Of a stretch of DNA of 36,779 nucleotides, positions 1 to 35,674 are shown piece after piece (the stretch's first letter is position 1; every line of letters begins with the position of its first letter). The stretch is from a virus. The translations under genes and the position numbers were made by a program. The notes under the pieces were generated by a model. It worked only from the letters and a program-made list of their open reading frames with translations. It did no database searches and was not told the origin of the DNA. The DNA is taken from the UHGV virus genome UHGV-0182470. The stretch is one strand, 5' to 3'.

Positions 1-79
1 AATGTAAAGACTGACTAAGCATGTAGTACCGAGGATGTAGGAATTTCGGACGCGGGTTCAACTCCCGCCAGCTCCACCA
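1..79 (+). ncRNA. ssrA: tmRNA (SsrA) 3' portion, partial at left window edge
   Basis: Positions 1-79 read AATGTAAAGACTGACTAAGCATGTAGTACCGAGGATGTAGGAATTTCGGACGCGGGTTCAACTCCCGCCAGCTCCACCA, which I recognise as the 3' end (T-arm/acceptor, CCA) of enterobacterial tmRNA; 5' part lies outside the window. Confidence 0.85.
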
Positions 80-2581: not shown

Positions 2582-5500
2582 GCGTCGTATCCCCCCTGAT
2601 CGCTGTAGTTACTCCTGGCTTTTGCCTTCAGCCTGCGTTCACGTTCATCAAGCTGGCGGGCCACCTCCCGCGCAATATCCTGCGCACTTTGTCCTGGCTG
2701 CGTCTGAATGATGATCTGCGTCGGTGCCTCAATCCGTTGAACGGGCGGCACAGTGGCTGCACGACTCACCATCGCTTCGCCGCCTTTCGAGGGAAGTGCC
2801 AAAGGATGCAACGGTGGAAGCTCTGCAGGCGCGGCAGCAACGCCCATCATTCCGGCAACAACGGCAGCCAGTGAAGCTGTATTTCTCCGGCTGGTCACAT
2901 TTGCCGGGCCGTTAACAATTTCCGGCCCGTTTTCACCGACGATGCCAAACTGCCCGCGCGGGATATAGCCGCCGCTGTCATACATCCCCGCAAAGCCATA
3001 TCCCCATGACGGAAAACCACCCGATGGCATCATCACTTTACCGTCTGCATTCACCGTCGCAGGTTGCTGACGCGTCACGCTTTCCGGCAGTTTCGCCTTT
3101 GCGGCCTCTTTACTGACAATGCCGAGTTTTTCCAGCAACCAGGATACGCCGGATTTCAGGGAGTCCAGCGGATGCATGACCATATTCAGCCCTTCCGCCA
3201 GCGCCTCCCCGAATCGTCGCCCCATTGCCGCTGCGCTCTGCAGTTCGGCAGAAGTCGACTTAACGGGCGTCAGCAAATCAGTAAACCAGCCCCACAGCGC
3301 CTGCACTTTGTCGCCAATCCACTGGAACACAGGCTTAAGCGGTTCGAATGCGGCACTGATGGGTCCTGCCGCCGCTTTGAATCCTTCCACCACGCCACCG
3401 AGAAATGCGGTGATGGGTTGCCAGTATTTCCAGACAACCAGCGCCACGCCCGCCAGTGCAGTAACCACAAGACCTATCGGACTGAGCAGAGCACCTAACA
3501 GACCAGATACGGCATACAGGGCAACGCGCAGCATCGCCAGTGGACCAGATGCCAGTACTCGCAGCACCGTGCCTGCGGCGGCCAGTCCACCGCGCAGTAC
3601 CGCCAGAGGATTCATAAACATCACAGCAGCAGCACGTAAACCGGATAATCCAGACCGGAACAGTGCAACCGGCGCACCTGCTACAGTTTTCAGGACATTC
3701 CCCGTCAGTGATGCCGTGCGACGCAAAGACGACAACGGAGCAGTAAGTAAACCCGCTGCGTTGCCCGATGAAGCAAGCCCGCGTCGCAGCAGTGCCAGTG
3801 GAGCGCCAGCTAACCAGGACAACGCGCTGCTGGTTCGTGTTACTGCTGCGGTAACGGAAGGTAACGTTTTGATACCCAGCACAGAGAATCCCAGACGGAT
3901 GACTGCCAGCGGCCCCAGCACTGCAGCCAGCGCCACCGCTAAGGTGCCGAGGCCTACGGTAACCGCAGCCACAACAGCCGCTACTTTCATCAGTGTGCCT
4001 GTCAGTTCCGGGTTAGCTTCCACCCAGCGGCGCAACGCCCCCGTGATGCTTTTCACCGTGTACAGAATATCCATCAGCGGCTGGCGCAGCGTTTCGCCCA
4101 GGCTGCTGAAGGTGTTCTGCGCTCCGGTTTTGACCAGCAACCACTGAGCAGAAAGTGAGTCTTTGTTGATGTCGGATTCTTTCTGCATGGAACCGAGCGC
4201 ATCATTGCCCGCTGTCAGTTTTAGCTGGCGCTGCAGTTCCGGAAGGTTGTTTGCCAGTTTCGCCGCGTCATCACCAAACTCTTTACCAAACAACATGGTC
4301 ATGGCAGACAGACGCTTGTCCTGCGGCAGTGCGTTCACCTTCTCCAGCACACGCTGGATAGTTCCCATCGCATCCTTCGTCATCTGCTTTTCAATCACTT
4401 CAGGATTGAGTTTCAGCAGATTCATCCCTTCAAAGAAACTCTTGCTTTGCATGGTGGCAATGGACAATTCACGCACCATCGCGTTTGCTGCACTGGCTGC
4501 AACCTCCGGTGCAGCGCCCAGTGTCAGGAAGGTGGAACCCAGCGCCGCCGCTTTACGATAATCCAGACGGTCAGCCACACCGCCCAGACGCTGCATCACA
4601 TCAATGATGTCCGCCCCTTTCGACATGGCGTTATCATCCAGAAAGTTCAGCGCATCACCGAGCTGTTCAATATTGCGGGTTGGTATTTTGTAGAGCTGGG
4701 CGATTTTCCCCAGACTTTCTGACAGTTCATCCGCTGGCAGCTCAAAGGCTGTTGCCGCTTTTGCTGCCGTACTGGCGAAGGCCAGCAGGTCACGTTTCTG
4801 GTCCTCCCAGCTGTCGTCAGGGTTTGCCACATTCATGCGCGCACCACCTTCAACCAGTGCGGCGAAGTCCACAGCACCGTTTTCCATTGGCAGCTGTTCA
4901 CTGGCAGCTTTGATGGCATCCTGCATTTCGTAAAAACGCGCAGTGCGGTTGCCATTATCGTCACGCAGACCATTGACCTGCTTTGCCACACCTTTCATGG
5001 CATCTTCCATGCTGGTATAGCTTTTTACCGCCGCCATCACTGGCGCGCCCATTGCCAGCCCTGCAGCCGTGGTGGTGGCTCCGGCTCCTGCGATGCGATC
5101 GCGCACTTCAAGCCGTCTTGAGTATTGTTCTCTGGCAACGTTCATCCGTGCCTGTTGTTCACCCAGACGTTTAAGTGCTTTTTGCTGGCCCTCCAGTGCC
5201 TGACGAGTTTCTTCGGCATTTTTCTTAAGTTCTCGCTGGGCACTACTGAGTTGTCTGGTATCAATCCCTGATTCTTTAAGTGCCTGACGTTGTCTCTGGA
5301 CCGCCCCCAACAAGCCGTTATAGGTCTGCTGAAGTTCCTGTACTCGTGTTTTGGCCTGACTGAATAACTTTGCTTGCGCGGCGGTTGGCCTGTTAGTGGC
5401 AGCAAATTGTGTGGCGAGTTTTGCCGCCTCTTCGCGGGCTGTGTTCAGGTTGTTGGCTGTTATGGCTAGTTGCGAGCGCGTCTTGCGAAATTCATCAATT

Positions 5501-5655
5501 CTGCCAGCCTGCTTATTCAGTTCTTTGAGGCTGTTTCGGGTATTCTGAATTGCGCCAGCCAGCTCTTTCGAACTGGCCTGTGCAGCACGGAATGGGCGGG
5601 TGAGTTTGTCAACCGCATTAAGAATGACCTGCAGGCGCAGGTTATTATCACTCAT
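2578..5655 (-). CDS. T: Tail tape measure protein
   Basis: 1025-aa ORF, coiled-coil N-terminus, Ala/Gly-rich hydrophobic repeats (LxxxAGxP...) in the middle; position after E/E'. Confidence 0.9.
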   Translation of the reverse strand: MSDNNLRLQVILNAVDKLTRPFRAAQASSKELAGAIQNTRNSLKELNKQAGRIDEFRKTRSQLAITANNLNTAREEAAKLATQFAATNRPTAAQAKLFSQAKTRVQELQQTYNGLLGAVQRQRQALKESGIDTRQLSSAQRELKKNAEETRQALEGQQKALKRLGEQQARMNVAREQYSRRLEVRDRIAGAGATTTAAGLAMGAPVMAAVKSYTSMEDAMKGVAKQVNGLRDDNGNRTARFYEMQDAIKAASEQLPMENGAVDFAALVEGGARMNVANPDDSWEDQKRDLLAFASTAAKAATAFELPADELSESLGKIAQLYKIPTRNIEQLGDALNFLDDNAMSKGADIIDVMQRLGGVADRLDYRKAAALGSTFLTLGAAPEVAASAANAMVRELSIATMQSKSFFEGMNLLKLNPEVIEKQMTKDAMGTIQRVLEKVNALPQDKRLSAMTMLFGKEFGDDAAKLANNLPELQRQLKLTAGNDALGSMQKESDINKDSLSAQWLLVKTGAQNTFSSLGETLRQPLMDILYTVKSITGALRRWVEANPELTGTLMKVAAVVAAVTVGLGTLAVALAAVLGPLAVIRLGFSVLGIKTLPSVTAAVTRTSSALSWLAGAPLALLRRGLASSGNAAGLLTAPLSSLRRTASLTGNVLKTVAGAPVALFRSGLSGLRAAAVMFMNPLAVLRGGLAAAGTVLRVLASGPLAMLRVALYAVSGLLGALLSPIGLVVTALAGVALVVWKYWQPITAFLGGVVEGFKAAAGPISAAFEPLKPVFQWIGDKVQALWGWFTDLLTPVKSTSAELQSAAAMGRRFGEALAEGLNMVMHPLDSLKSGVSWLLEKLGIVSKEAAKAKLPESVTRQQPATVNADGKVMMPSGGFPSWGYGFAGMYDSGGYIPRGQFGIVGENGPEIVNGPANVTSRRNTASLAAVVAGMMGVAAAPAELPPLHPLALPSKGGEAMVSRAATVPPVQRIEAPTQIIIQTQPGQSAQDIAREVARQLDERERRLKAKARSNYSDQGGYDA

Positions 5656-6084
5656 CGTTGGCCCCGCTTCTCTGAATCGCTTTATACCGCCATTCCAGCA
5701 CTTCGGTCAGCGGCATAACGTCAGTAACGGATGGCGGCCAGTGAAAGATGGTGGCGATATCAGCCACCAGATCGTCAACCGTCAGGCTGTCGGTAAACCG
5801 GCAAGCACCGACTTCTTCAACAAAAAAGTGACAACCTCAACCGACATGGCAGTGAGATCTGCCGGGTCCATCTCTGCAATTTCCTGTGCAGTCAGTGCCG
5901 GACTGGAGATGCGGGGGATCACGGTCATCATCGCGTTCACATCCATATCCATAATGGCCTGCAGGCGTGTACCGCGCAGCGCACCGGACTGCGGTTTACG
6001 CAGCACAATTTCGGTGATTTCTGTTTTACCGCGCTTGATGGGGGTATCCAGTTGAATAGTCTTTTCAGTCTGCTTATCGCTCAT
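5649..6084 (-). CDS. E+E': Tail assembly chaperone E+E' (-1 programmed frameshift product)
   Basis: Minus-strand reading ...GTC ACT TTT TTG TTG AAG... (heptamer at 5821-5827 on + coordinates); the -1 frame stays open for ~58 codons (FFVEEVGACRFTDSL...WRYKAIQRSGANDE) and stops at TGA overlapping the T start codon. Confidence 0.8.
5782..6084 (-). CDS. E: Tail assembly chaperone E
   Basis: 100-aa ORF upstream of tape measure; contains slippery heptamer T_TTT_TTG near its 3' end. Confidence 0.85.
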   Translation of the reverse strand: MSDKQTEKTIQLDTPIKRGKTEITEIVLRKPQSGALRGTRLQAIMDMDVNAMMTVIPRISSPALTAQEIAEMDPADLTAMSVEVVTFLLKKSVLAGLPTA

Positions 6085-6138
6085 TTTGCTGTCCTGTAAA
6101 TTGGGTTCTGGCGCGGTATCCCGCGCCGTTCAGATACA

Positions 6139-6654
6139 TCAGAGGCCGAGGGCGTTGCGGTGCGCTTCCATCAGGTCCACACCGTCCACAATTTCCACCA
6201 TGTTGATAAGGTCCACTTCATAGAGCACCTCACCATTTATAGTCAGCTTCGCGTAGCTGTTGGTACTGGTCACTTTGGTGGTGTTGCTTTCGCCCGTCTT
6301 CCACTCGCCGGAATCCACTTCTTTGTGACGTCCACGCACCACAAGCTCCACGGCCTGCACTTCCCCGGTATCGTCACGCTGGATAGAGCCGGTAAAGCGC
6401 AACTGGATACCATCCACCGTGGCTTTGCCCATCTGCTTAAACAGCAGCAGTTCAGTACCACCAATGGAAAATTCCGTATCCAGTGCGCCGTCATCCAGCC
6501 CCAGATCCACATCCACTGCACCCGGCATTCCGCCGCCGCGATACTTCTCATATTTGCGGGTAAATTTCGGCAGCGTCAGCGACTCAACGATCCCCTGCCA
6601 GTTGTTCCCGTCATTAAACAGGTTCAGGTGTTTTAATTTGCGTGGTAAAGCCAT
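6139..6654 (-). CDS. FII: Tail tube protein FII
   Basis: 171-aa ORF; size, position after sheath gene and sequence consistent with P2 gpFII. Confidence 0.9.
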   Translation of the reverse strand: MALPRKLKHLNLFNDGNNWQGIVESLTLPKFTRKYEKYRGGGMPGAVDVDLGLDDGALDTEFSIGGTELLLFKQMGKATVDGIQLRFTGSIQRDDTGEVQAVELVVRGRHKEVDSGEWKTGESNTTKVTSTNSYAKLTINGEVLYEVDLINMVEIVDGVDLMEAHRNALGL

Positions 6655-6663
6655 GTTGTCCCC

Positions 6664-7836
6664 TTACGCGCTGACCTGGCTGGAGAAATTCACCAGGTAC
6701 TGATCGGTGATGCGCTGACGCAGCATCAGGTTTTCAAGTGGCGGCACTGGCGTGTAGTCGTAGTCGATGGTGAGTTTTCCGGCTTTCAGCGTGTCTTTGT
6801 CGTTCACCGACTCATCCAGCCAGCAATCACCACCAATGAGATAGCCCTGACTGACCAGGCTGCGCATTTTGGCGCGGATACCCTCGATAATGTCGCGGGC
6901 CAGCGACGGATTCAGCGGTTTATCCACCGCCCACATGTGCGCTTCTGCCATCGTGTCCGTCAGCACCTGCGCCGTGCGGGTGTAGTTTTCGAAGGCAAAG
7001 AGCGGGTCATCACTCAGGCAGCGGGAACCCCAGAAGCGAAAACCGTCTTTGCGGATAAGGGTGGTGACGTCGTTCTGGTTCAGCAGTCCCGCATCGGTTG
7101 CCGGGTCCTGCAGATCCCAGAACACATCAGCAGAAATTCCGGTGACACCGTTAACGCCCACGTTGGACAGGCTTTTGTGCCATCCGGTCTGCTCGTCAAT
7201 TTTGGCGCGCAGACCAAGCGCACGGGCGGTGGCATAAGCCGTTGCTTCGGCATTCAGCACCGTGTCCCAGCCAGTAAAGTCGGGCCAGATCAGCATTCCT
7301 TCACGCTGACTGAAGTTTTCACGGTAAGTGATTGCTTCCTGCACCGTCTTGCAACCATACGCTGACAGGTAAGCAAATCCACGCAGGCTTTGCGCCACGC
7401 TCAGCAACTCAGTAGCTACCGCCTTCGTGTCGTGACCTGGCACGCCGAGAATGCGCGGTTTAACGCCGAGCTGTGACTGGGCAGATAACAGGGCTTTCAT
7501 GCCTGTTTTTTTACCTTCAGCGGTCACTGCTCCGATGATATTGGTCGTGGTTTCTTCTTCCGTTTCACCCTGCGGCACACGCACAACAACGGTCACGGGT
7601 TTTGCCTGGTCAGCGATGGCATCCAGCGAACGAGCCAGCGTGCCTGACTCACCCGCTTTACCGCTGGCAGTCAGCACATCAGTGATCAGCACGGGTTTAT
7701 TAAGAGGAAACATTTTTGCATCGGCATCATCGCCCGTGCAGACCATACCCACGATGGCGGTGCTCACCGTGGTAATGGATCGGGTGCCTTCGTTGACTTC
7801 AACAACGCGCACCCCGTGGTGGTAATCCTGAGCCAT
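6664..7836 (-). CDS. FI: Tail sheath protein FI
   Basis: 390-aa ORF starting [14 protein letters not shown]..., typical contractile sheath; first gene of F operon. Confidence 0.9.
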
Positions 7837-13761: not shown

Positions 13762-13793
13762 TTGACACAAAAGATGTTTATTGACAATATATA
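13762..13793 (+). promoter_or_regulatory. Putative sigma70 promoter of the DUF262 cargo gene
   Basis: TTGACA at 13762-13767 followed ~17-18 bp later by AT-rich -10-like hexamer (CAATAT/AATATA); ATG at 13820 with AAGGAG RBS. Confidence 0.35.
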
Positions 13794-13819
13794 AATTCAA
13801 TCTAACAAGGAGAAAAATT

Positions 13820-15595
13820 ATGCCAAATGAAAATCTTGATATTGACTCAAGGACTACCGAGCAATTATACGAATGGTATTTGCAAGGAAATTTGATAGTC
13901 AATAGACGTTATCAAAGGAAACTTGTATGGTCTCTAGAAGAAAAGACTTCTTTAATATCTTCTATGCTGCAACAATATCCTATTCCGTTATTATTATTTG
14001 TTACCATCAATGAACAAAGAGAAATATTGGATGGAATGCAAAGATTAGAAGCAATTATGAGCTTCATCGAACAGAGATTTTCATTAGATGGACAATATTT
14101 TGATTTGGACTCTATAGCTTTAACAAAACAACTTAAAGATAATGGAACTTTAATTCAGAAAGAACCAATCCTTTCCCGTGATTCTTCAGCAATTATTGCA
14201 CGTTATCGATTTGCAATATCAGAATATAGCTCCACAAATGAAAATATTGACGAAGTATTCAGACGAATAAACTCAAACGGGAAGATTTTATCCAAACAAG
14301 AATTACGTAGTGCAGGAACAGTTAGTAACTTCTCTGAACTGGTCAGATCGATATCAACATCGATCAGAGGTGATACTAGCCATTCTGACATTATGAATCT
14401 CCAGCAAATGCACAAAATTTCAATCAGTAACGATAGATTGGAGTACGGGGTAAATATCGATAACCACTTTTATATAAAACATCATATTTTAACAAGACGA
14501 AGTATTCGTGATTCTGATGACGAGGAATTGATAGCCAATATCCTTGCATATATCAGTCTAGAAGAAAAACCCACATCTGGGTCAACTTCTCTCGACACAT
14601 TCTATGGTCAAGGAAACTCCTCTCATGCTCATGGTGTCAGACAGCAATTAGAGTCTTTCATTCAAACCAATAACGCTGCCACTATTAAGCAGAATTTCAT
14701 AGCTGTATATGAATTAATTACAAGCCTATATGACGGAAAAAATGATACTTTTAGAAGCCATATTTTAGGGGAGGATAATTCATCTCAAGAATGCCCTCGT
14801 TATTATCAAGCTGTGTTTTTGTCTATTTATGAACTTCTTTTCAACCAAAATATGCAATTAATTGATAAAGAAGGTTTATTCTCGCAATTAAAAAACACTG
14901 GCAATACCATAATTATGGTTACCGATGGTGGCCGCTGGGCTGCAAGCACTCGTGAAAAAAGTGTTAATGATCTTGTTGCATTAATAAGTCGCTACTTCCA
15001 ACCTGCTCCTCAAAAGTATGTGAATCATGCTTGGGTAACTGAAATTCGCAATCTATTAACAAATTCTAGAACTGAACAACCAAGTTATGATTTCAAACAG
15101 GGGTTCTTTAATTTATCAGGTAAAAATGAATTTGATGATGAATGTTTAAAAGGAATATTACAAACTTGCGTAGCAATAAATAATATTGGAAAAAGCGCAA
15201 AAGGCTATATTTTAGTTGGTATTGCCGAAAATAAATTAACCGCAGATAGAATTCAACATTTATATGGAGTAAATTCAATTGAGTTCAATGGGTTCTATAT
15301 AAACGGAATTGATCATGAAGCAATGTTAGTCTCTGGTAGCATTGATGGTTACTTTATGTTAATAAAACAAAAAATACAAGGATACAATTTCACTGAAACT
15401 CTAAAACAGCAGATACTTAAGAATATTGAGTTTTGCTCTTACAATGGCTTACACATACTCAAGATAACTATTCAGAGCACAGGTCAAATTTGCGACTTTG
15501 AGAATATGTTTTATATCAGACAAGGCTCATCGACTGATCCAGTTACGGATACACAAAAAATCTCAGCCCTATTTAACTCTTACATGAACAGCTAA
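13820..15595 (+). CDS. DUF262 (ParB/GmrS-like N-terminal domain) protein, candidate defence cargo gene
   Basis: 591 aa from ATG 13820 (AAGGAG RBS; ORF track start 13781 is upstream in frame); N-terminal region ...RRYQRKLVWS...ILDGMQRLEAI matches the DGQQR signature region of DUF262; visibly AT-rich relative to flanking phage genes; opposite strand to S and V. Confidence 0.7.
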   Translation: MPNENLDIDSRTTEQLYEWYLQGNLIVNRRYQRKLVWSLEEKTSLISSMLQQYPIPLLLFVTINEQREILDGMQRLEAIMSFIEQRFSLDGQYFDLDSIALTKQLKDNGTLIQKEPILSRDSSAIIARYRFAISEYSSTNENIDEVFRRINSNGKILSKQELRSAGTVSNFSELVRSISTSIRGDTSHSDIMNLQQMHKISISNDRLEYGVNIDNHFYIKHHILTRRSIRDSDDEELIANILAYISLEEKPTSGSTSLDTFYGQGNSSHAHGVRQQLESFIQTNNAATIKQNFIAVYELITSLYDGKNDTFRSHILGEDNSSQECPRYYQAVFLSIYELLFNQNMQLIDKEGLFSQLKNTGNTIIMVTDGGRWAASTREKSVNDLVALISRYFQPAPQKYVNHAWVTEIRNLLTNSRTEQPSYDFKQGFFNLSGKNEFDDECLKGILQTCVAINNIGKSAKGYILVGIAENKLTADRIQHLYGVNSIEFNGFYINGIDHEAMLVSGSIDGYFMLIKQKIQGYNFTETLKQQILKNIEFCSYNGLHILKITIQSTGQICDFENMFYIRQGSSTDPVTDTQKISALFNSYMNS

Positions 15596-23011: not shown

Positions 23012-24039
23012 TGGGAAAGAGTAAGAAAAACCGCGCTGCGGCGACGAAACAGCTCCAGCTTAAAAACCAGACTACAGCCGAAGCATTCAGCTTCGGCGAT
23101 CCCGTTCCTGTTCTGGACCGCCGAGAACTGCTGGACTATGTGGAATGCGTACAGATGGACCGTTGGTATGAGCCGCCCGTCAGCTTTGACGGACTGGCGC
23201 GCACCTTCCGCGCTGCCGTGCATCACAGTTCCCCGATTGCAGTAAAGTGCAACATTCTGACCAGTACCTATATCCCTCATCCGCTGCTCAGCCAGCAGGC
23301 TTTTTCGCGTTTTGTGCAGGACTATCTGGTATTTGGTAACGCCTACCTGGAGAAACGCACGAACCGATTCGGTGAAGTTATCGCTCTTGAGCCTGCGCTG
23401 GCAAAATACACCCGACGCGGATTAGACCTGGATACCTACTGGTTTGTGCAATACGGTATGACAACCCAGCCGTATCAGTTCACGAAAGGCAGCATTTTTC
23501 ATCTGATGGAACCGGATATTAATCAGGAGATCTACGGCCTGCCCGGTTATCTTTCTGCCATTCCGTCAGCCCTGCTCAACGAGTCCGCCACGCTGTTCCG
23601 CCGGAAGTATTACATTAACGGTAGTCATGCAGGCTTCATCATGTACATGACCGATGCCGCGCAGAACCAGGAGGATGTGAACAACCTCCGCAACGCGATG
23701 AAAAGTGCCAAAGGTCCGGGTAACTTCCGCAACCTGTTTATGTACTCGCCTAACGGCAAAAAAGACGGGCTTCAGATTATCCCGCTATCAGAAGTCGCAG
23801 CGAAGGATGAATTTCTTAACATCAAGAACGTGAGTCGGGATGACATGATGGCAGCGCATCGTGTGCCACCACAAATGATGGGGATAATGCCTAGCAATGT
23901 TGGGGGGTTTGGGGATGTGGAGAAGGCGGCAAATGTGTTTGTGCGAAATGAATTATTACCGTTGCAAAAAAGGATGCGTGAAGTAAATGACTGGTTAGAA
24001 CAAAAAATTTTGCGATTTGAGCCATATTCTTTGGGATGA
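23008..24039 (+). CDS. Q: Portal protein Q
   Basis: 343-aa ORF coupled to P (ATGA overlap). Confidence 0.9.
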   Translation: MMGKSKKNRAAATKQLQLKNQTTAEAFSFGDPVPVLDRRELLDYVECVQMDRWYEPPVSFDGLARTFRAAVHHSSPIAVKCNILTSTYIPHPLLSQQAFSRFVQDYLVFGNAYLEKRTNRFGEVIALEPALAKYTRRGLDLDTYWFVQYGMTTQPYQFTKGSIFHLMEPDINQEIYGLPGYLSAIPSALLNESATLFRRKYYINGSHAGFIMYMTDAAQNQEDVNNLRNAMKSAKGPGNFRNLFMYSPNGKKDGLQIIPLSEVAAKDEFLNIKNVSRDDMMAAHRVPPQMMGIMPSNVGGFGDVEKAANVFVRNELLPLQKRMREVNDWLEQKILRFEPYSLG

Positions 24040-24096
24040 TTTCTCTTGTAAATCAACATGCTTTGCTGTTCGATAGAACAAACCAAAATTTGATTA

Positions 24097-24557
24097 GTGG
24101 GAAAAGTTCATGGTACAGCAAGTATGGTTTTTTTTAAGGCAATTGAGAAAGACGATCTTAGATACTGGGGAAATGATAGTTATCCCGATGACTCATCAGT
24201 TTTCTATCGCTATGACAGTTTTGTAGCGAATCACAAAAATGTAAAAGACGGTGATATTATTATTATTACCAACAGAGAAAATATTTTAGGTATATCTGTT
24301 ATTGAAAAATTAGAAACACAGAGCATTAATAAGAAGCGTAACAAATGTATTAACCTAGACTGCAAAGCAAAAAAATTCTTCAAAGGAAAACTATAAAATC
24401 AGAGTGGCGTTGTGATAATGGCCATGAATTTGATGAACCCAGAGTGGTTTTTGAGCCAGCTAAAGAATTTATAGCATACTGCGGCAACCAGTACCGTAAA
24501 TTATCCAATATTACAATGTCACAACTTATAGATGAAACTCCACGCTACAATGGGTAA
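24097..24557 (+). pseudogene. Zinc-ribbon-containing ORF split by a frameshift in an A7 tract (24097-24396 in frame 0, continuing to 24557 in frame +2)
   Basis: Frame-0 ORF ends ...KCINLDCKAKKFFKGKL; the same region in frame +2 reads ...KKILQRKTIKSEWRCDNGHEFDEP...YCGNQY... One extra A in the A7 run at ~24370-24376 would join them into one ~153-aa protein with a Cys/His zinc-ribbon-like pattern. Confidence 0.45.
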
Positions 24558-25070
24558 ATGTCCATCCAAGAAGTTAACTATCAATGGGCTGTTGCTTTGC
24601 TTACCGCCCAACATACTATTATTCTGGAGCTCAACGCCAGCGAAGCTGATAAAGACACCCCCACTTTAATGGGTGAAGATCAACGGCAAATTGTAGAACG
24701 GCAAATAAAACAACGAAGTGGGCAAAAAACATTTCGCGACCAGCTATTAAAATCAAATCCTACTTGTGCGGTTACGGGCTGTAAGCTTGTTGATATTCTT
24801 GATGCTGCTCACATTAATGTATATCGAAACGATAGTCACAATCATATTAGCAATGGATTATTGCTCAGAAGTGACATTCATACTTTATATGACCTAAATC
24901 TTTGTGCTATAAACCCGATAACAAAAACCATTCATTTTTCAGTGGAAGCCTTGGAAAATGGATATTCGAAATTCGAAGGTTTAAAAATAAATACCCAACA
25001 CAACATAGCAATAAAACCACTATTAACAAGATGGCAGTTATTAAAATCTCAAAACTCTATTGATATATAA
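24558..25070 (+). CDS. HNH endonuclease-domain protein
   Basis: 170 aa; motifs RSGQKTFRDQLL...CAVTGC...LDAAHI...NGLLLRSDIHTLYD fit the HNH (restriction-type) signature; ATG abuts the TAA of the upstream ORF (TAAATG); AT-rich. Confidence 0.7.
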   Translation: MSIQEVNYQWAVALLTAQHTIILELNASEADKDTPTLMGEDQRQIVERQIKQRSGQKTFRDQLLKSNPTCAVTGCKLVDILDAAHINVYRNDSHNHISNGLLLRSDIHTLYDLNLCAINPITKTIHFSVEALENGYSKFEGLKINTQHNIAIKPLLTRWQLLKSQNSIDI

Positions 25071-25085
25071 TAAATAGCGACAACC

Positions 25086-25117
25086 GAAGGGAGCGTTTAT
25101 AATTAAAAGCTCCCTTT
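25086..25117. terminator. Bidirectional hairpin terminator between convergent cargo genes
   Basis: GAAGGGAGC ... GCTCCCTTT stem flanked by A/T-rich sequence. Confidence 0.5.
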
Positions 25118-25126
25118 AGCAGGAAA

Positions 25127-26155
25127 TTAGAGCACTAGGGGATCAGTGACCCATGCTTTATTATGGTTTTCTCGATAACAATCATAAATTAATAAATCCG
25201 TTCTTGTATCCGGTGGAAGTTCAATTTCAGGAATGTAATAACTTGCTGGATTGCTATTATCTAATGAAATTGAAAAGTTTTGATTAACGATCGTTGATAG
25301 AGACGTATTGGCTTCCAATAAGCTAAACGGGCCATATTTTACACAGTACATTACAACACAAGCAGCAACTGCATCCATTACATTTTCTAAAGTGGAAAAG
25401 TGGAATGCTCCTGATCTATCATGTTTAGTTTTATTATATGCATTATACCATGACAAAGATGTTGTAGGGGTACTTGCATTCCACCCATCAAAAGGTTTGA
25501 AATGCCTTAATCCGTCATAATTCAAATATTGAATTTTATATTCAGACAAATAACACTTATCTAATAATTTCACATAATCATTTGTGGAGTATCGACCATT
25601 TGAACGAGATAAATTCGAATTACCAATGATTGACACCCATTGATTTTCAACCTCAGTACAAGCAAGAATTAATAGCTCTCTACATTTATGACTGTAAGAA
25701 ATCAAACCATGGGCACTTGGTTCTACATATAGAAAAATATCATCGAGTTTTTCTATCAAAACTCTTAGAGCTTGCTCTGTTGCTCTTTTTTCAAACTCAT
25801 CGATACCTAATGCTGTTTCTGTATCATTGACATAATATAAGGATGGCCGCCACACTCCCCTAGTTACATGTCCAATTTCATTATCTAAAGGAGATATGTT
25901 CTGAGCCCCAAATACTCTCCGAACCCAATCATTGAGAGTTCCACTTCGTTGCTCAATAACAGTTAACCCAACTGATATTACATTAAATCCCACGTCACGC
26001 CCATACAGATGCACAAAATGACTTGTTGTTTCATAAGCGTAACCGAATTTGTGCTTTTGATGTACTGTTGTTTCAAAATTAGGAATGCGTGTATGAGTGT
26101 TTTCGTACCAGATTCCGTTCATCATCACCTCTAATGAGAGTCGATTATATTTCAA
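25127..26155 (-). CDS. Hypothetical 342-aa AT-rich cargo protein
   Basis: Long uninterrupted ORF on the minus strand in an AT-rich island between Q and the putative cos site; no confident family assignment (contains an RSGAFH, i.e. R-x4-H, motif). Confidence 0.6.
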   Translation of the reverse strand: MKYNRLSLEVMMNGIWYENTHTRIPNFETTVHQKHKFGYAYETTSHFVHLYGRDVGFNVISVGLTVIEQRSGTLNDWVRRVFGAQNISPLDNEIGHVTRGVWRPSLYYVNDTETALGIDEFEKRATEQALRVLIEKLDDIFLYVEPSAHGLISYSHKCRELLILACTEVENQWVSIIGNSNLSRSNGRYSTNDYVKLLDKCYLSEYKIQYLNYDGLRHFKPFDGWNASTPTTSLSWYNAYNKTKHDRSGAFHFSTLENVMDAVAACVVMYCVKYGPFSLLEANTSLSTIVNQNFSISLDNSNPASYYIPEIELPPDTRTDLLIYDCYRENHNKAWVTDPLVL

Positions 26156-26233
26156 TGGATTATATGGATGATACTACACTAAGTTGTACCTATGACAGAT
26201 ACTATTTTAGCCACTTCAGGCATACAGCGCGCG

Positions 26234-26252
26234 CTCGTATCCCCGCCACGCC
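26234..26252. other. Putative cos cohesive-end site (P2/186-like)
   Basis: Reverse complement reads GGCGTGGCGGGGATACGAG; first 13 nt match the 186 cos sequence GGCGTGGCGGGGA as I recall it; GC-rich island in AT-rich surroundings. Confidence 0.4.
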
Positions 26253-26583
26253 TGCTCGCTTTATGTAGTGGTTTTCATGCACCTGCATGACATGAGTAAA
26301 AGCCCGCCAGTTCTGGCAGGTGTCTGCAAAAACGATCCTCAATCGATCATGCGATTTCATGCAGCATAGTCATGCACTGCCAAGGGAAGCGTTAATCCGT
26401 ATCTGATAACCGCTTGAAAAACGAAACATACTGGTTTACAACAATAAAAATCCGCTGTGAGCGAAGAGCAGAAGTTACAGCATAAAAAGCAATATGGTTG
26501 TGTACCATAGAGCTAAACATTTAAACAAGTTATGTGCTGTATCGATATACTGTGACTCAATATCTAAAACATGGAGGGTGAAT

Positions 26584-27057
26584 ATGTCTTCTTCTACATC
26601 ACAACTACAGCATGTTACAACATCGACAACAGTAAACTCGTCAAGTTACTCCCCCGTCAAATTGCAAGATCATGAAGCAGCATCGAATTCTGGACCTGGT
26701 GGACATACAATTAGAAGACATGTTGGCAAGGATGCCAATTACCTGATAGATCGATTAGATCGATTTCCTAAACTCTGTGTAGCTTCAACATTTACAAACT
26801 TATCAGTAGCAGAACTATCAGCTACCGAGTGGTTCAATTCATTTCTTATGGAATTTACAGAGTGGTATAAAGATCCTAATCGCACAGAGGTTAGATTTTC
26901 AAAGGAATTAGACATTGAACAGGATGTAGGCACTTACGTTAAACGCGATAATCCAAACAATATATTGACTGCAAAAAGAATTAATTTAGTCATGAAAATT
27001 GAAAAGTTTAACGGAATGCCTCATTTCATCCTCACTGCATATCCTGTTAAGGGGTGA
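26584..27057 (+). CDS. Hypothetical protein, toxin-like (Ser/Thr-rich N-terminal linker + compact C-terminal domain)
   Basis: ATG 26584 with GGAGGG RBS (track ORF starts upstream at 26494); 158 aa; motif GGHTIRRHVGK; translationally coupled to the next gene. Confidence 0.6.
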   Translation: MSSSTSQLQHVTTSTTVNSSSYSPVKLQDHEAASNSGPGGHTIRRHVGKDANYLIDRLDRFPKLCVASTFTNLSVAELSATEWFNSFLMEFTEWYKDPNRTEVRFSKELDIEQDVGTYVKRDNPNNILTAKRINLVMKIEKFNGMPHFILTAYPVKG

Positions 27058-27061
27058 TAAT

Positions 27062-27721
27062 ATGTCAAAAGAATATACTAAACTAGATAATTTTATACGG
27101 TCCTACTTCAATCAAGATACCGTATGCGAACTTGAGTCAGATGATCTTGGAAAGATTATTGATTTATATCTTTCTGATGTTGGTCAGAATGGCGTAAAAG
27201 AACTTCTAATTGATATTTCAAAGTTTATTAATGATAATAAAAATCAAAGCCTTGATAAATATTTTGAGAATAAGTTCAGCTCTTATCTTGACATAACTCC
27301 AGTTGAAAAATTCATCTCACTCTTGAATTCAAAATATCTCGAAAAATATCCTGAGATAAAATCCACTGCCGTGAAACATTTTGTATTTTCTACTACACCA
27401 AAGAGAACACAGCATAAACCAAGAATAATTAAAAGATTTCCTTCAATGGTTCCAGCACTTAGTTTTGAGTTTTCATCAGAACGAATCGCTGATTCCAATG
27501 CTTTGTTTCGAGGAAAAGTTTTTAAGCGTAACAACATTAAGCGCGGAGCCAGAAAACCATATTATATACTGGTAAACATCAAACCAAAACAAGAGGCGGC
27601 TATAAAGGTTTCTTTATCTAAGAGTAAGAGTCGTCAACGTCTTTACGATTCACTTAAAAAATCCATTGAAGCTACAGATATTGTTTTGCAAAATAATAAA
27701 GTCGAAAAAATGAAATCATAA
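27062..27721 (+). CDS. Hypothetical protein, immunity/partner-like, basic C-terminus
   Basis: ATG 27062 with AAGGGG RBS, 4 nt after stop of upstream gene; 220 aa; Lys/Arg-rich C-terminal third. Confidence 0.6.
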   Translation: MSKEYTKLDNFIRSYFNQDTVCELESDDLGKIIDLYLSDVGQNGVKELLIDISKFINDNKNQSLDKYFENKFSSYLDITPVEKFISLLNSKYLEKYPEIKSTAVKHFVFSTTPKRTQHKPRIIKRFPSMVPALSFEFSSERIADSNALFRGKVFKRNNIKRGARKPYYILVNIKPKQEAAIKVSLSKSKSRQRLYDSLKKSIEATDIVLQNNKVEKMKS

Positions 27722-27730
27722 CGTGAAGAA

Positions 27731-27757
27731 AATAGCCACTCCTAGTGGCTATCTTTA
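27731..27757 (+). terminator. Rho-independent terminator after the two-gene module
   Basis: ATAGCCACT / AGTGGCTAT perfect 9-bp stem, 3-nt loop, followed by CTTTAATT. Confidence 0.6.
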
Positions 27758-27941
27758 ATTGTTATCCCAAAACCATCTCCTAGGGAGGTGGTGATTGATT
27801 TATAAGATAGTTAAAACCAAAAACATTTGACAGTAGTAAAGAGAAAGTTGCGTCCATCAGTTGAAGTCAAAGCATAAAGCGGACGATCACTTATCAAAAT
27901 GGCCGCCCACCTAACTCCTCGTTTCACTCGTGCTAAAACTA

Positions 27942-27971
27942 GCCCCCATCAGAATAAATCCTCCTGGGGGC
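27942..27971 (-). terminator. Rho-independent terminator after dinI-like gene
   Basis: GCCCCC...GGGGGC hairpin immediately downstream (minus strand) of the stop at 27980, followed by a U-rich tract on the minus strand. Confidence 0.5.
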
Positions 27972-27979
27972 AACGTTTC

Positions 27980-28210
27980 TTAATGCAGCCAGCTGTCGTC
28001 TTCCCACACCTTCTGCATAATTTTCATCACTTGTTTTCTTTCTTCGTCCAGTTGCAGTCCGGTCAGTTCCACACCGTTAGAGCTACCTTTGCGGATACGA
28101 ATTACCGTTTTGGGATACAGGGGGCGCAGATTGCGGTAAAGCTCGGATTCAAGGGCGTCCAGTGTAGACTGGCTAACCTTCTGCTCTTTATCGATCATTA
28201 TTTCAATGCG
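27980..28210 (-). CDS. dinI: DinI-family protein (ORF track extends to 28285; start at MRIEIMI)
   Basis: MRIEIMIDKEQKVSQSTLDALESELYRNLRPLYPKTVIRIRKGSSNGVELTG...KIMQKVWEDDSW aligns along its length with E. coli DinI as I recall it. Confidence 0.8.
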   Translation of the reverse strand, partial: RIEIMIDKEQKVSQSTLDALESELYRNLRPLYPKTVIRIRKGSSNGVELTGLQLDEERKQVMKIMQKVWEDDSWLH

Positions 28211-28564: not shown

Positions 28565-30979
28565 TTAATACAGGTTTCGCCACTTATCATCTTCCTGCAA
28601 ACGCTGGTTCCGATAGAAGATACGCAGGCCTGCTCCTGATGGAATACTGCCGCCGCGAAGCAGTAAATCGACCTCTTTCTCGCTGCCATCAAATCCCCTG
28701 GACTTCAGTTCATACACGAGCTGCTGTCGCTGATGATCTGTAATTCGCTGTTTGTAGTCTTTACGCCGTTTCGGTTTCACAAGGCGTAACCTTGCTGCCA
28801 GTTCCCGGCGCTCTTTTTTGCTCATACTGTGCAGGTAATCGTGCAACTCCTTGTCATCCATGCGGGTGATATCCGTTCTGGTATCTCCATCAGCTGATTT
28901 GTCTTTCCCTTGTTGGTACAAATTTTCAGCAAGGGGACAGTTATTGCCACGAGTCCAAGGGGCGCAAGCGCCCTGGTCGGCTGCCGCCTCCTGAATGTCA
29001 ACGGCCTTACGAACCATTTTCCACTTCACGGCATGAGTGCAGATCTTGCCCTCTGCAATAGGTGACCAGATGCCATAAATACGAATGCCGTGATCGCCAT
29101 AGGCGGTCGGCTCTTCGTTGATTTCATAAGCAGTTCTGATGAGGTGATATTTGCGGGGAACCAGTACGCCGCCCTGCTTCATGATGTAGGTGGCAAAACA
29201 ACCAGCATCAGCAGCAGCCAGGATTGCATCAAGGCGCGGGTTATCCAGTACCGGCGCACCTGCTTTTTTGTCCCCCTGTTGCCTTGCCGCCTGACCAGCC
29301 AGCAATCGCAGTTCACGGTAAGCCTGACGCCCCGGAATGCCAAAGAAGCGGAATTGCTGAACACGATGCAGAGACGCCCAGGCATTAACGTATTCAGCAT
29401 TATCACGCAGGGATTTCCCCGTTTCCTTGCTGATCTCGCCAGCCAGACCACGCCCGTCAATGTTCTTACTGATGTATTTCGCGATGTAGCTTGTTGGCGT
29501 ACCTTTGCGCGGGTTAATCAACTCAGACTTAAAGCGCGGTCCAGTGTTATTGCCCAGCTCCTCGCGGTCTTCACGGATGGCAAACTTACGCAGTAATGCA
29601 GTGATGGCGCGGCGGTCTTTTTTGCGCATAAAACACAACAGGTGCCAGTGAACTGTACCGTCATGATGCGGCTCAGCCACCCGCACGCCATACCAGCGCA
29701 ATCCGGCTTTGTGCATCGCCTTACGAAATGCAGCAAACATGCCGACCAGATAATCACTACTTTGTCTTACCGTCGCATTTGTCCAGGTTGGGTTGGGCCT
29801 GCCGTTATTTAGCGTGGAATGGAAACGTGACGGACAGGTGATGGTGTAGAAAACGGCGCAGTCACCGCGCATTTCCGCGATAAGCTCCAGACCTTTAACA
29901 CAGGCCATCATCTCATTGCGGCGATGCGCAGGGTTGCTGCTGCTGGCGTTTACCACATCCTCCATGTCCAGCGTGTCGCCGTCTTCGTTCACCAGTTCAT
30001 GAGAACGGAAAAACTCCAGCGACTTACGGCGCTGCTCACGTTTATGCATCACGGCTTCATAGCTGACATAAGGAGATGCTTTTTTGCTAACCAGGCAGAC
30101 AGCGCGCAACTGCTCTTCCCGCCATTCGCAACGCATCTTCCATAATTTCCGATACCACCAGTCAGCGCACAACATACGCGCCAGCGAACCCGGAATGAGT
30201 TCATAGGGCACGGGTTTACGGCGGTTTCTTTTCCGGCGGAGTTGCTCAAACGCAGGCGGGATGACATCCAGACGCAGGGTTTCCGCTGCCACCTTTTCCC
30301 ATGTATTGCGGATTTCTTCTGGCTTAACGTCATCGGTGACATACAAATCGCCACAAGCTGCATCAAGGCACATGCTCATATGCGCAGCGACAAGGGTAGA
30401 CAAGCGTTTCACCTGATCCTGACTCATTTCAGGCAGGATCAGCAGGCCGTCCAGCCCTTCATGGCTTGCCATAAAGCGAAAAGAAGTGGATAGCTGACTG
30501 TCGCGTACATGCTCCAGTCGTTCCAGACATGGCTTAATCGTCTCACGCAAATAGCGGGAATAAGCCTTTGGCCTGCCCAGGCTGCTGAAGTATTCAATAC
30601 GTTGCATCAGCGGCTTGCTGATATGGGAAGGCTGGGCATTGACGTCCGCCAGAATGACCATGTCCGGGTTAAAACGCTGCTGCTCATGCGCCAGCTTTGC
30701 CCGACTAATGAGCTTATCCTGCTCCATTTCGCGCTGGACAGGATCACGGGATTCATTAAAGAAATAACGCTCCCAGACCTGATCACTCAGCGCCTCACGG
30801 CGCAGCTGTTCCTGCTCGTTATCGGCAGCGTACAGAGTGATCAGATTTGAAAGCGCAGAAACCGGCGCAACTTCCGCCGGGTCCAGATAAGGGTTAATGG
30901 CCTTTTTCGGGCTGTTCCATGAGAATGCTGCGGCGACCTCGTTAAAGCCGCTGCAGTTGTTCATATCAGCATGGCTCAT
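28565..30979 (-). CDS. A: Replication initiation endonuclease A (rolling-circle type)
   Basis: 804-aa ORF; size, position and sequence character match P2/186 gpA. Confidence 0.85.
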
Positions 30980-34657: not shown

Positions 34658-35674
34658 ATGACCATCAGAAAACAGCCGAACGGAAAATGGTTGTGTGAGT
34701 GCTATCCCAATGGACGCAATGGTAAGCGCGTGCGTAAGCAATTTGCTACCAAAGGCGAAGCCATTGCATTTGAAAGCTTCACAATGGAAGAAGTGAACAA
34801 AAAACCGTGGTTAGGAGAAAAGGATGATCGGCGACACCTATCAGAATTAATTGAGCTTTGGTATTCCCTGTATGGTCAGACACTCGCAGACCCCAAGCGC
34901 CTCATGGCGAAACTTAGAATTATCTGTAATGGTCTAGGCGACCCCATCGCCTCAGAACTGACAGCCGGTGACTTTACGAAATACCGCGAAGCACGGTTAA
35001 AAGGTGAAGTACGAAATGAAGATGGCACGTTTATGTCGCCCGTTAAGCCCCGCACGGTAAACCTTGAACAGCGCAATCTATCATCTGTTTTTGGTACGCT
35101 GAAAAAGCTGGGCCACTGGTCAGCCCCCAACCCGCTTGCTGGGCTGCCAACATTTAAAATTGCTGAGAGTGAATTGGCGTTCCTGACCCCGGAAGAAATT
35201 AAACGTCTGCTGGATGCCTGCGCCGATTCTCAAAGCTCCAGCCTGCTTTTGATTGCAAAAATATGCCTGGCCACCGGCGCACGCTGGAGCGAAGCCGAAA
35301 ACCTGCAGAGTCATCAGGTATCAAAATACCGTATCACTTATACCAAGACCAAAGGCAAGAAAAACCGAACTGTGCCTATTTCTAAGGATTTATATGAAGA
35401 ACTGCCTAAGAATAGGGGGAAGTTATTCACCCCATGCAGAAAAGCCTTTGAGCGTGCAGTAAAGCGGGCTGGTATCGATCTGCCAGAGGGTCAATGTACT
35501 CACGTTCTGCGTCATACATTCGCTAGCCATTTTATGATGAATGGTGGAAACATATTGGTTTTGCGGGATATCCTAGGACATTCAGATATAAAAATGACCA
35601 TGGTCTATGCACACTTCGCCCCAGACCATTTAGAAGATGCCGTAACTAAAAATCCTTTATTTAATTTGAGGTAA
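34658..35674 (+). CDS. int: Tyrosine integrase
   Basis: 338 aa; C-terminal catalytic region HVLRHTFASHFMMNGG...LGHSDIKMTMVYAH with R..H..R..Y signature. Confidence 0.9.
   Translation: MTIRKQPNGKWLCECYPNGRNGKRVRKQFATKGEAIAFESFTMEEVNKKPWLGEKDDRRHLSELIELWYSLYGQTLADPKRLMAKLRIICNGLGDPIASELTAGDFTKYREARLKGEVRNEDGTFMSPVKPRTVNLEQRNLSSVFGTLKKLGHWSAPNPLAGLPTFKIAESELAFLTPEEIKRLLDACADSQSSSLLLIAKICLATGARWSEAENLQSHQVSKYRITYTKTKGKKNRTVPISKDLYEELPKNRGKLFTPCRKAFERAVKRAGIDLPEGQCTHVLRHTFASHFMMNGGNILVLRDILGHSDIKMTMVYAHFAPDHLEDAVTKNPLFNLR

Follow-up and report, generated by a model that had tools for sequence, protein, structure and literature searches.

Two adjoining genes on the plus strand form a compact cassette in the 36,779-nt stretch of viral DNA analysed (the window), which represents a P2-like prophage. 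The features of the locus are as follows.

26447–26520, plus strand: conserved 5′ flank of the cassette, common to the E. coli copies and the Klebsiella copy
26451–26465, minus strand: terminator-like hairpin in the 5′ flank, from a scan for terminator-type hairpins
26493–26509: palindrome TATGGT-N5-ACCATA within the 5′ flank, a candidate operator
26522–26551, plus strand: sigma-70-like promoter from a promoter scan (TAAACA, 18 nt, TATACT)
26572–26577, plus strand: ribosome-binding site (RBS) of ORF1, GGAGGG, of which GGG is invariant in 6/6 aligned loci
26584–27057, plus strand: ORF1, 157 aa (ATG at 26584, TGA at 27055–27057)
27050–27061, plus strand: coupling junction, comprising AGGGG (RBS of ORF2), the ORF1 TGA stop and TAAT, then the ATG of ORF2
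27062–27721, plus strand: ORF2, 219 aa (ATG at 27062, TAA at 27719–27721)
27732–27752, plus strand: terminator hairpin ATAGCCACT-CCT-AGTGGCTAT, with a 9-bp stem and 3-nt loop
27772–27792, plus strand: second hairpin (9-bp stem), confined to the E. coli copies
28565–30979, minus strand: gene A, the replication gene

These coordinates bear out an earlier sequence-only reading of the region as two open reading frames 4 nt apart, each with its own RBS and followed by a 9-bp hairpin. The RBS-like AGGGG of ORF2 (27050–27054) overlaps the end of ORF1, making translational coupling plausible, and both the 3–4 nt gap and the G-rich bases immediately before the toxin stop codon were kept in 6/6 loci compared. 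An in-frame ATG further upstream (26494), which would extend ORF1 to 187 aa, was rejected as the start because in relatives the reading frame from it is shifted or interrupted by a stop; the PGAP annotation is likewise of the 157-aa form. The region is AT-rich, as had been noted, at 31–38% GC against ∼52% in the phage backbone, and its GC3 is 0.24–0.28 against 0.58 for the portal gene.

The cassette also lies where it had been placed, between cos and gene A, at the locus of the P2 accessory genes old and tin. A cos-like 19-mer, GGCGTGGCGGGGATACGAG, was found on the minus strand at 26234–26252, in a block of 150 bp that P2-like phages conserve; the end of the portal gene lies at 24039. This position, in the gpQ–gpA variable region next to cos, matches the P2-like defence hotspot, which holds old and tin and many validated systems, and whose cargo also includes non-defence genes such as partition systems and a cytolethal distending toxin (Rousset et al. 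2022). An RNAse_A_bac, CdiI_2 and HNH_2 arrangement is one entry in the hotspot table of that study, where it was neither curated nor assayed (Rousset et al. 2022). In the main defence loci of P4 satellites, 6/8 randomly picked unknown genes were protective against phages in a published study.

Overall, the promoter scan showed no enrichment over shuffled sequences; in six copies, each from a different genomic context, the −10 TATAC did not vary and kept the same spacing to the ATG. The Klebsiella copy has the same 5′ flank block although it occupies a different phage position, and the palindrome within this block may be an operator. Terminator-like sites numbered five between 26100 and 28000, against 1.2±1.0 in shuffles. 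The hairpin after ORF2 had been described as a terminator with a perfect 9-bp stem; it is present as described, but the T-run that follows it is weak (CTTTAATTGT). Since it lies between A-rich and T-rich runs, it could work in both directions. A hairpin occupies the same site after the stop codon in the Klebsiella and genomic-island copies, with different stem sequences. An antisense or structured RNA partner was considered and rejected, as the 5′ and 3′ flanks folded no better than shuffles on either strand (z from −1.6 to +0.2), and Rfam searches found no RNA family in the cassette or nearby. The −10 box, the RBS, the 3–4 nt gap and the terminator hairpin were retained across all six contexts: the pair is an autonomous unit with its own promoter and terminator, always moving together.

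The sequence-only reading had suggested that ORF1 resembles small nuclease-type toxins and, from sequence alone, had assigned neither protein to a named family. Profile search upheld the resemblance and made family assignment straightforward for both proteins. ORF1 matched Pfam PF18431 (RNAse_A_bac) at 72.9 bits (E = 4.9e-20; curated Pfam cut-off 27 bits), residues 40–154 covering model positions 1–113 of 113, so that its sequence spans the bacterial RNase A-like toxin domain in full. The closest solved relative, by sequence and as the top Foldseek match, is the toxin chain of the CdiA-CT/CdiI complex of Yersinia kristensenii (PDB 5E3E_B), at only ∼20% identity. The AF2 model of ORF1, made with a shallow alignment, was poor (pLDDT 54.7), and the only meaningful Foldseek matches to it were both toxin chains of 5E3E (probability 0.99, TM 0.37–0.49). 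The Ser/Thr-rich N-terminus followed by a compact domain, described previously, corresponds to a tail of residues 1–38 and an RNase domain of residues 39–157, the latter opening with the His/Arg/Lys-rich motif GGHTIRRHVGK (aa 39–49), also as reported. Four codons specify a putative active site, identified by homology.

26719–26721, plus strand: H46, aligned with His175 of the Y. kristensenii CdiA-CT
26752–26754, plus strand: R57, aligned with Arg186
27034–27036, plus strand: T151, aligned with Thr276
27040–27042, plus strand: Y153, aligned with Tyr278

Mutation of these Y. kristensenii residues abolishes RNase activity and toxicity (Batot 2017, PMC5435912). Among nine divergent relatives of ORF1 the His, Arg and Thr were invariant, and Tyr alternated with Phe, an alternation reported earlier for the RNase A-like toxin family (Batot 2017, PMC5435912). 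Beyond the RNase domain and its 38-aa hydrophilic tail ORF1 contains nothing else: no signal peptide, lipobox, VENN, CdiA, PAAR, Rhs, LXG, WXG or hydrophobic N-terminal domain was detected, and the highest Kyte–Doolittle 19-residue window was 0.8, indicating no hydrophobic segment.

ORF2, previously proposed to be an immunity-like partner, proved to have two parts.

27062–27361, plus strand: CdiI_2 domain, ORF2 residues 1–100, acidic (pI 4.7) and predicted to be helical
27362–27721, plus strand: basic C-terminal extension, ORF2 residues 101–219, ending in a conserved helix, SIEATDI

Residues 4–76 matched PF18593 (CdiI_2) at 38.7 bits (E = 1.7e-9; curated Pfam cut-off 26.7 bits), and a profile of the domain found, as its best PDB match, the chain that partners the toxin in 5E3E (5E3E_A, CdiI of Y. 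kristensenii; E = 0.005). The N-terminal part of ORF2 is thus, as far as homology can tell, a cognate member of the CdiI_2 family. A CdiI_2 immunity protein would be expected to be a single domain of ∼100 aa, whereas ORF2 has 219 aa. Its C-terminus is strongly basic, as the earlier reading had it (residues 101–219, net charge +20, pI 10.8), and gave nothing significant in Pfam, NCBIfam, PHROGs or PADLOC, nor did searching the PDB with a tail profile. Homologues of residues 101–219 were confined to a handful of long relatives, and a whole-protein profile recovered no tail-bearing proteins beyond the ORF2 family among 1.84 billion representatives. The AF2 model of ORF2 was also poor, again with a shallow alignment (pLDDT 46.5; below 50 over residues 100–189, with a helix at 185–204), and Foldseek searches with it returned only noise. 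In distant relatives of ORF2 the C-terminal module differs, one of them carrying an H-NS in complete form. An RGARKPYY motif in the ORF2 tail suggested a degenerate DNA-binding domain of H-NS, but this was rejected because profiles of ORF2 and of the H-NS-fused relative aligned over the N-terminal domain only.

To judge from patterns of substitution, both genes are functional and under purifying selection. In all but the closest pair of copies (window-L002), dN/dS in the RNase and immunity domain was 0.1–0.3 (ORF1 0.11–0.34, CdiI_2 domain 0.08–0.21; closest pair 0.54 and 0.32 respectively). The tail, conserved within the family yet faster-evolving, had mostly 0.4–0.6 (range 0.22–0.78).

The pair was found in 12/5426 complete E. 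coli genomes and falls into ∼10 protein clusters; RefSeq names are already in place for both proteins. No relative was found at the DNA or protein level in 50,697 deposited phage genomes, and neither protein was found in GTDB searched at one genome per species. The pair occupied the gpQ–gpA region of an E. coli P2-like prophage and, in Klebsiella, the gpS–gpV interval of another P2-like prophage; further copies lay in a lambdoid prophage, flanked by its P and Q genes, and in a siphophage, a satellite-like element and a non-phage genomic island. The cassette mostly adjoined known or candidate defence genes in temperate-phage variable regions. Neighbours matching defence models included an AriA/Old-like ATPase, PDC-M68A, PDC-S31 and, at E = 1e-157, the PDC-S49 KAP NTPase, with an RmrA-like gene further along the same prophage as the last. 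A neighbouring HNH gene and a 342-aa gene were discounted as parts of the system, since strain PSS-12 and every other context have the pair but not these genes. Of the checks proposed from sequence, searches with family profiles gave the matches described above, but PADLOC-DB 2.0.0 gave none for either protein (E up to 1). The rarity of the cassette, the lack of a PADLOC match and the presence of non-defence cargo in the hotspot count against a role in defence.

Comparison with related systems shows what is distinctive here. The CdiA-CT/CdiI pair of Y. kristensenii ATCC 33638 (PDB 5E3E; PF18431 and PF18593) shares with the cassette its toxin family by sequence, the GGHxxxRHVGK motif, the His/Arg/Thr/Tyr site, an immunity protein of the same family with a YFNQD motif, and a gene order of toxin first, then immunity. 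By analogy, ORF1 would be expected to be a metal-independent RNase with an active site blocked by its immunity protein. Unlike CdiA-CT, however, ORF1 is a free-standing, temperate-phage-borne protein of 157 aa with its own RBS and ATG; the cassette has no CdiA filament, VENN, cytoplasm-entry domain or CdiB, there is no gene of CdiA or CdiB size in the window, and ORF2, with its added basic tail, is twice the length of the Y. kristensenii CdiI. [quoted passage not shown] Such longer toxins are far commoner, most of 182 matches being ∼277–290 aa. In Rhizobium and Bacillus the toxins are linked to secretion through an Hcp–VgrG cluster and WXG100 fusions, respectively, whereas ORF1 has the RNase domain only and the prophage has no linked delivery genes. 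The Rhizobium immunity protein, at 220 aa, has a C-terminus unrelated to the ORF2 tail. Both families are already known; what sets the cassette apart is its free-standing, phage-carried form with an extended immunity protein.

The reading we favour, with a probability of about one half, is that the cassette is an intracellular toxin–antitoxin-like module, probably acting in abortive infection or in competition between mobile elements. The absence of a delivery domain and the presence of a cognate immunity protein imply that the pair acts inside the cell that produces it, in the manner of type II toxin–antitoxin systems, and the adjacent gene architecture and homology to a solved toxin–immunity complex fit this class; a part in phage or plasmid exclusion is suggested by genomic context. 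As accessory cargo of the cos-proximal gpQ–gpA variable region of a P2-like prophage, gene 1 would encode a small cytoplasmic RNase, its His/Arg/Thr/Tyr site intact and free of export or delivery domains, and gene 2, translated in step with it, a CdiI_2-type immunity protein whose N-terminal domain, on the model of the 5E3E complex, would cover the active site and exclude RNA. An incoming phage might lower or divert the immunity protein. The ORF2 tail, which is long, basic, fast-evolving and probably disordered, is a candidate degron or sensor. The freed RNase would then degrade tRNA and rRNA, halting both cell and infection. Immunity proteins of the CdiI type normally are stable and bind tightly, which counts against reading ORF2 as a labile antitoxin. 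A literature search found no published test of the RNase/immunity pair.

A selfish addiction module, killing cells that lose the pair and so retaining itself, the hotspot cargo or the prophage, with no anti-phage function, is an unlikely competitor. Its two-gene toxin–antitoxin-like architecture, its constant association with mobile elements and a relative close to the repA gene of a small plasmid in Pantoea would all suit such a role, and sequence cannot tell addiction from defence. Against this, the repeated neighbours in phage variable regions are of defence type, rather than replication or partition genes, and many toxin–antitoxin pairs once labelled addiction modules later proved to be anti-phage.

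A more specific, and rather doubtful, proposal is that ORF2 is a two-part switch, in which the RNase is kept in check by an unchanging CdiI_2 domain and an exchangeable C-terminal module (the basic tail here, a complete H-NS in one relative) releases it on infection. The module might sense the state of nucleic acid or the nucleoid, or be attacked by phage proteins directed against binders of this kind.

Use of the RNase as an interbacterial effector, exported (for example by a T6SS) or freed at phage lysis to kill neighbours lacking ORF2 while lysogens are protected, is improbable. The RNase family is defined in CDI, T6SS and T7SS toxins (PMC5435912), the Rhizobium relative with the 220-aa immunity protein lies between Hcp and VgrG, and one genomic-island copy has a PAAR gene nearby, on the opposite strand; but ORF1 has none of the export or delivery features sought above, the prophage contains no secretion or adaptor genes (Hcp, VgrG, PAAR and WXG100 were looked for), and a free 17-kDa RNase would lack any domain for receptor binding or translocation that could bring it into a cell. 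It is very improbable that the pair is a tool of the lytic cycle, the RNase shutting down the RNA of host or competitor while P2 grows, or countering host defence, with ORF2 as timer: the genes are phage-encoded and adjoin cos, but they are accessory and rare, occupy unrelated positions in unrelated phages as well as a non-phage island, and have their own constitutive-type promoter and flanking terminators, typical of cargo expressed in the lysogen. That the pair is inert and decaying, a toxin tip and its immunity gene orphaned on detachment from a polymorphic toxin gene, is hardly credible and largely refuted by the selection analysis. Orphan cdiA-CT/cdiI cassettes are common beside CDI loci, but here an intact start codon, RBS and promoter are conserved, the catalytic residues are invariant, and dN/dS stays far under 1 where synonymous divergence exceeds 1.

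RNase A-like toxins and CdiI_2 proteins are known as interbacterial weapons, and the cassette is the same pair stripped of its delivery parts, moving among unrelated temperate phages in variable regions otherwise full of defence genes. Were it protective, a compact RNase-based system would join the repertoire of the P2 hotspot, as a clean example of warfare toxins reused as intracellular immunity and, given a solved homologous complex, a tractable case for the conversion of an immunity protein into an infection-sensitive antitoxin; were the switch proposal also true, contact-dependent-inhibition hardware would have been rebuilt as a new, sensor-bearing, phage-borne family of abortive-infection systems. 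If not protective, it would be a well-defined addiction module missed by current tools for defence annotation.

Parallels exist among other systems. RnlAB and LsoAB are likewise toxin-first bicistrons borne on mobile elements, in which an RNA-cleaving toxin is restrained by a protein partner, and the P2 exclusion genes old and tin share the locus of the cassette; none of these has any sequence relationship to it. Ribocin (RbcN) of Pseudomonas aeruginosa is highly divergent from ORF1, and the accessible part of its description mentions no immunity partner and gives no phage link. It is a small free-standing RNase A-like protein in which His, Thr and Tyr are required for activity and which, unlike the cassette, targets host (C. 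elegans) ribosomes at helix 69.

Both genes match families known from a solved toxin–immunity complex. The first open reading frame, ORF1, covered the whole of the Pfam model RNAse_A_bac (PF18431; E 4.9e-20, 72.9 bits, cut-off 27), and its sole PDB relative was 5E3E_B, the toxin chain of the Yersinia kristensenii CdiA-CT/CdiI crystal, which was also the top Foldseek match of an otherwise poor structural model. Residues 4–76 of the second, ORF2, matched CdiI_2 (PF18593; 38.7 bits, cut-off 26.7), and with a profile built from diverse versions of the CdiI_2 domain the top-scoring PDB entry was 5E3E_A, the immunity chain from that crystal (E 0.005). Both genes are therefore homologues of the solved complex, with gene order kept. 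The sequence-only reading had proposed a small nuclease-type toxin followed by its immunity gene and had suggested profile searches; these assigned both proteins to families and bear that pairing out. The two families are known and already named by annotation pipelines (RefSeq ‘RNase A-like domain-containing protein’ and ‘contact-dependent growth inhibition system immunity protein’, respectively). The layout of the cassette is as follows.

Cassette features in the window
26584–27057, + strand: ORF1, 157 aa, ATG to TGA
27062–27721, + strand: ORF2, 219 aa, ATG to TAA
27732–27752: hairpin with a 9-bp stem, 3′ of ORF2
27772–27792: second hairpin

The residues required for RNase activity and toxicity in Y. 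kristensenii CdiA-CT, which needs no added metal to degrade tRNA and rRNA (His175, Arg186, Thr276 and Tyr278; Batot et al., PMC5435912), correspond to H46, R57, T151 and Y153 of ORF1. Across all relatives compared the His, Arg and Thr were invariant, and the Tyr position held Tyr or Phe, an alternation already described for the family (Batot et al., PMC5435912). ORF1 has three extra residues at positions 56–58 (window 26749–26757), reading IDRLDRF versus L-G/S-RF in every relative; this insertion beside the catalytic arginine looks like a 9-nt duplication and makes two arginines, R57 and R60, candidates for that role. The RNase domain is preceded by only 38 hydrophilic, Ser/Thr-rich residues, and a scan of ORF1 for delivery parts found no hydrophobic stretch, lipobox Cys or further domain. 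We predict with high confidence that ORF1 is a metal-independent endoribonuclease whose active site is blocked by the N-terminal domain of ORF2.

ORF2 is twice the normal length for an immunity protein. Its basic C-terminus, remarked on in the sequence-only reading, has a net charge of +20 and a pI of 10.8 over residues 101–219, a region with no match in Pfam, PDB, PHROGs, NCBIfam or PADLOC and with very low AF2 confidence except in a terminal helix carrying a conserved SIEATDI motif. The long form is very rare: searched with a profile, 1.84 billion representative proteins gave only 13 matches, which outside this family comprise a few other long CdiI_2 proteins (193–261 aa) with different C-terminal parts. 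One metagenomic protein, P0026 (59–775 of the 1-kb contig L014), fuses CdiI_2 to a complete H-NS with its N-terminal oligomerisation and C-terminal DNA-binding domains, and starts 2 nt after an RNase A-like toxin gene ends; all four long relatives looked up in their contigs directly followed such a gene. The picture suggested by these sequences is of a constant toxin-holding domain joined to an exchangeable C-terminal module. The H-NS fusion hints that such modules may bind nucleic acid, but no similarity between the ORF2 tail and H-NS was demonstrable.

The adjacent ORFs, their 4-base spacing and ribosome-binding sites (GGAGGG 5′ of ORF1; AGGGG ahead of ORF2, within the final ORF1 codons), the 9-bp-stem hairpin and the AT-richness were all as first described. 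GC content was 31–38% against ~52% in the phage backbone, and GC3 0.24–0.28 against 0.58; terminator-like sites numbered five in 26100–28000, compared with 1.2 ± 1.0 in shuffled sequence. An in-frame ATG at 26494 was rejected as the ORF1 start because the codon is not conserved in relatives. Across cassette contexts the −10 box (TATACT, at fixed spacing to the start codon), ribosome-binding site and coupling junction were conserved and the terminator hairpin was present, its stem sequence differing from copy to copy, from which we conclude that the cassette moves as a self-expressing unit. About 65 nt past the terminator (27806–27870) were similar in the E. coli and Klebsiella copies, at different phage positions, and more weakly in the lambdoid copy; folding gave no stable RNA structure for this stretch, which may belong to the mobile unit or be a scar left by recombination.

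The cassette is rare, being present in 12 of 5426 complete E. coli genomes (chromosomal in every case), 0/50,697 deposited phage records, 0/185,579 species-representative genomes and four IMG/VR contigs, with ~10 toxin and 13 immunity clusters at 90% identity. Both genes occurred together, 3–4 nt apart, in every locus examined.

Locations of the pair
E. coli P2-like prophages: gpQ–gpA region, neighbours varying by strain
Klebsiella P2-like prophages: tail genes S to V
Lambdoid prophage: replication gene P to antiterminator Q
Another siphophage: tail-tip to lysis genes
Integrase/H-NS island
Satellite-like element with primase and integrase: a more distant relative

Nei–Gojobori dN/dS, calculated at synonymous divergence reaching and exceeding 1, was 0.11–0.34 for the RNase domain (0.54 for the closest pair, the window and E. 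coli PSS-12), 0.08–0.21 for the immunity domain (0.32 for that pair) and mostly 0.4–0.6 for the basic tail. These low values indicate that both genes are kept by selection; the tail evolves at several times the rate of the immunity domain.

A defence-system scan, also suggested earlier, was run with PADLOC, and no model matched ORF1 or ORF2. Neighbours of the pair in other phages did match its models for established or candidate defence proteins.

Neighbours matching PADLOC models
E. coli PSS-12: AriA/Old/AbiLi-like ATPase, E 3e-15
Lambdoid phage: KAP NTPase, PDC-S49, E 1e-157
Klebsiella: PDC-M68A/endonuclease effector, E 1e-22
Siphophage: PDC-S31, E 6e-23

The lambdoid prophage (L010) has an RmrA-like peptidase ~5 kb downstream, and this single phage holds several defence-type cargos (5185–7092 and 13936–15578: KAP NTPase; Peptidase_M78, RmrA-like, paired with DUF4411). 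The gpQ–gpA region is a hotspot with 1,650 arrangements among 18,150 loci, containing old/tin, newly validated systems and also non-defence cargo; a supplementary table of that study enters the very arrangement found here (RNAse_A_bac + CdiI_2 + HNH_2 ...) once, under the curation threshold and with no assay (Rousset et al. 2022). Of eight unknown genes picked at random from the principal defence loci of P4 satellites, six were protective (2026 study).

With fair confidence, the pair acts within the producing cell in the manner of a type II toxin–antitoxin system, coupled translation fixing the proportion of the two proteins; intracellular action is argued by the lack of a delivery domain in ORF1 and the moron-like layout. 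From genomic context, we put at about even odds that the pair is selected for abortive infection or for keeping out competing mobile elements; on that reading, depletion or diversion of the immunity protein would set off the toxin, with the basic, fast-evolving tail a likely degron or sensor. Rival accounts make the pair a purely selfish addiction module or a tool of the lytic cycle. A competition toxin, secreted or released, is opposed by the missing delivery domain. Relatives that serve secretion systems differ from ORF1: most matches of the RNase profile search belonged to a Pantoea-type family of 277–290 aa with an N-terminal domain of ~160 aa containing hydrophobic stretches, a Rhizobium relative lies between Hcp and VgrG, and a Bacillus relative is fused to WXG100. 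A decaying remnant is strongly contradicted by the selection data. Our literature search found no paper testing this pair; the novelty lies in a pair that stands alone on phages, in its spread as an autonomous module through variable regions rich in defence genes, and in an immunity protein lengthened by C-terminal modules that can be exchanged.

RNase A-like toxin genes also lie beside an S24 peptidase and umuC on a Pantoea plasmid (L022, 4563–9014) and beside YolD and UmuC in the Bacillus temperate phage RBClin15 (PMC11526630). Error-prone polymerase genes in this position on two unrelated elements may be coincidence or reflect a shared SOS-linked context.

The host is a P2-like prophage (~700–35700; integrase 34658–35674). 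Positions 1–79 (+) of the window are the 3′ end of tmRNA (ssrA; Rfam RF00023, 76 bits), and since the prophage directly adjoins it, integration may have occurred at ssrA. The proposed placement between cos and gene A holds: a cos-like 19-mer (26234–26252) lies within a 150-bp block conserved among P2-like phages, and beyond the cassette come a DinI-like gene and then replication gene A, both on the minus strand. The portal gene ends at 24039, and the portal side of cos (24040–26160) holds AT-rich cargo, namely a small hypothetical gene and the HNH_2 and 342-aa protein genes listed below; in PSS-12 an OLD/AriA-like ATPase takes the place of this cargo.

Other cargo in the window
13781–15595, + strand: 604-aa protein, GmrSD_N (DUF262) and Schlafen AlbA_2, matching PADLOC NsnA and PD-T4-2_A
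24558–25070, + strand: HNH_2 endonuclease
25127–26155, − strand: 342-aa protein, only match phrog_19461 (function unknown, E 2e-222)

The 604-aa protein gene occupies the variable S–V tail region, where Klebsiella P2-like prophages have the RNase/immunity pair.
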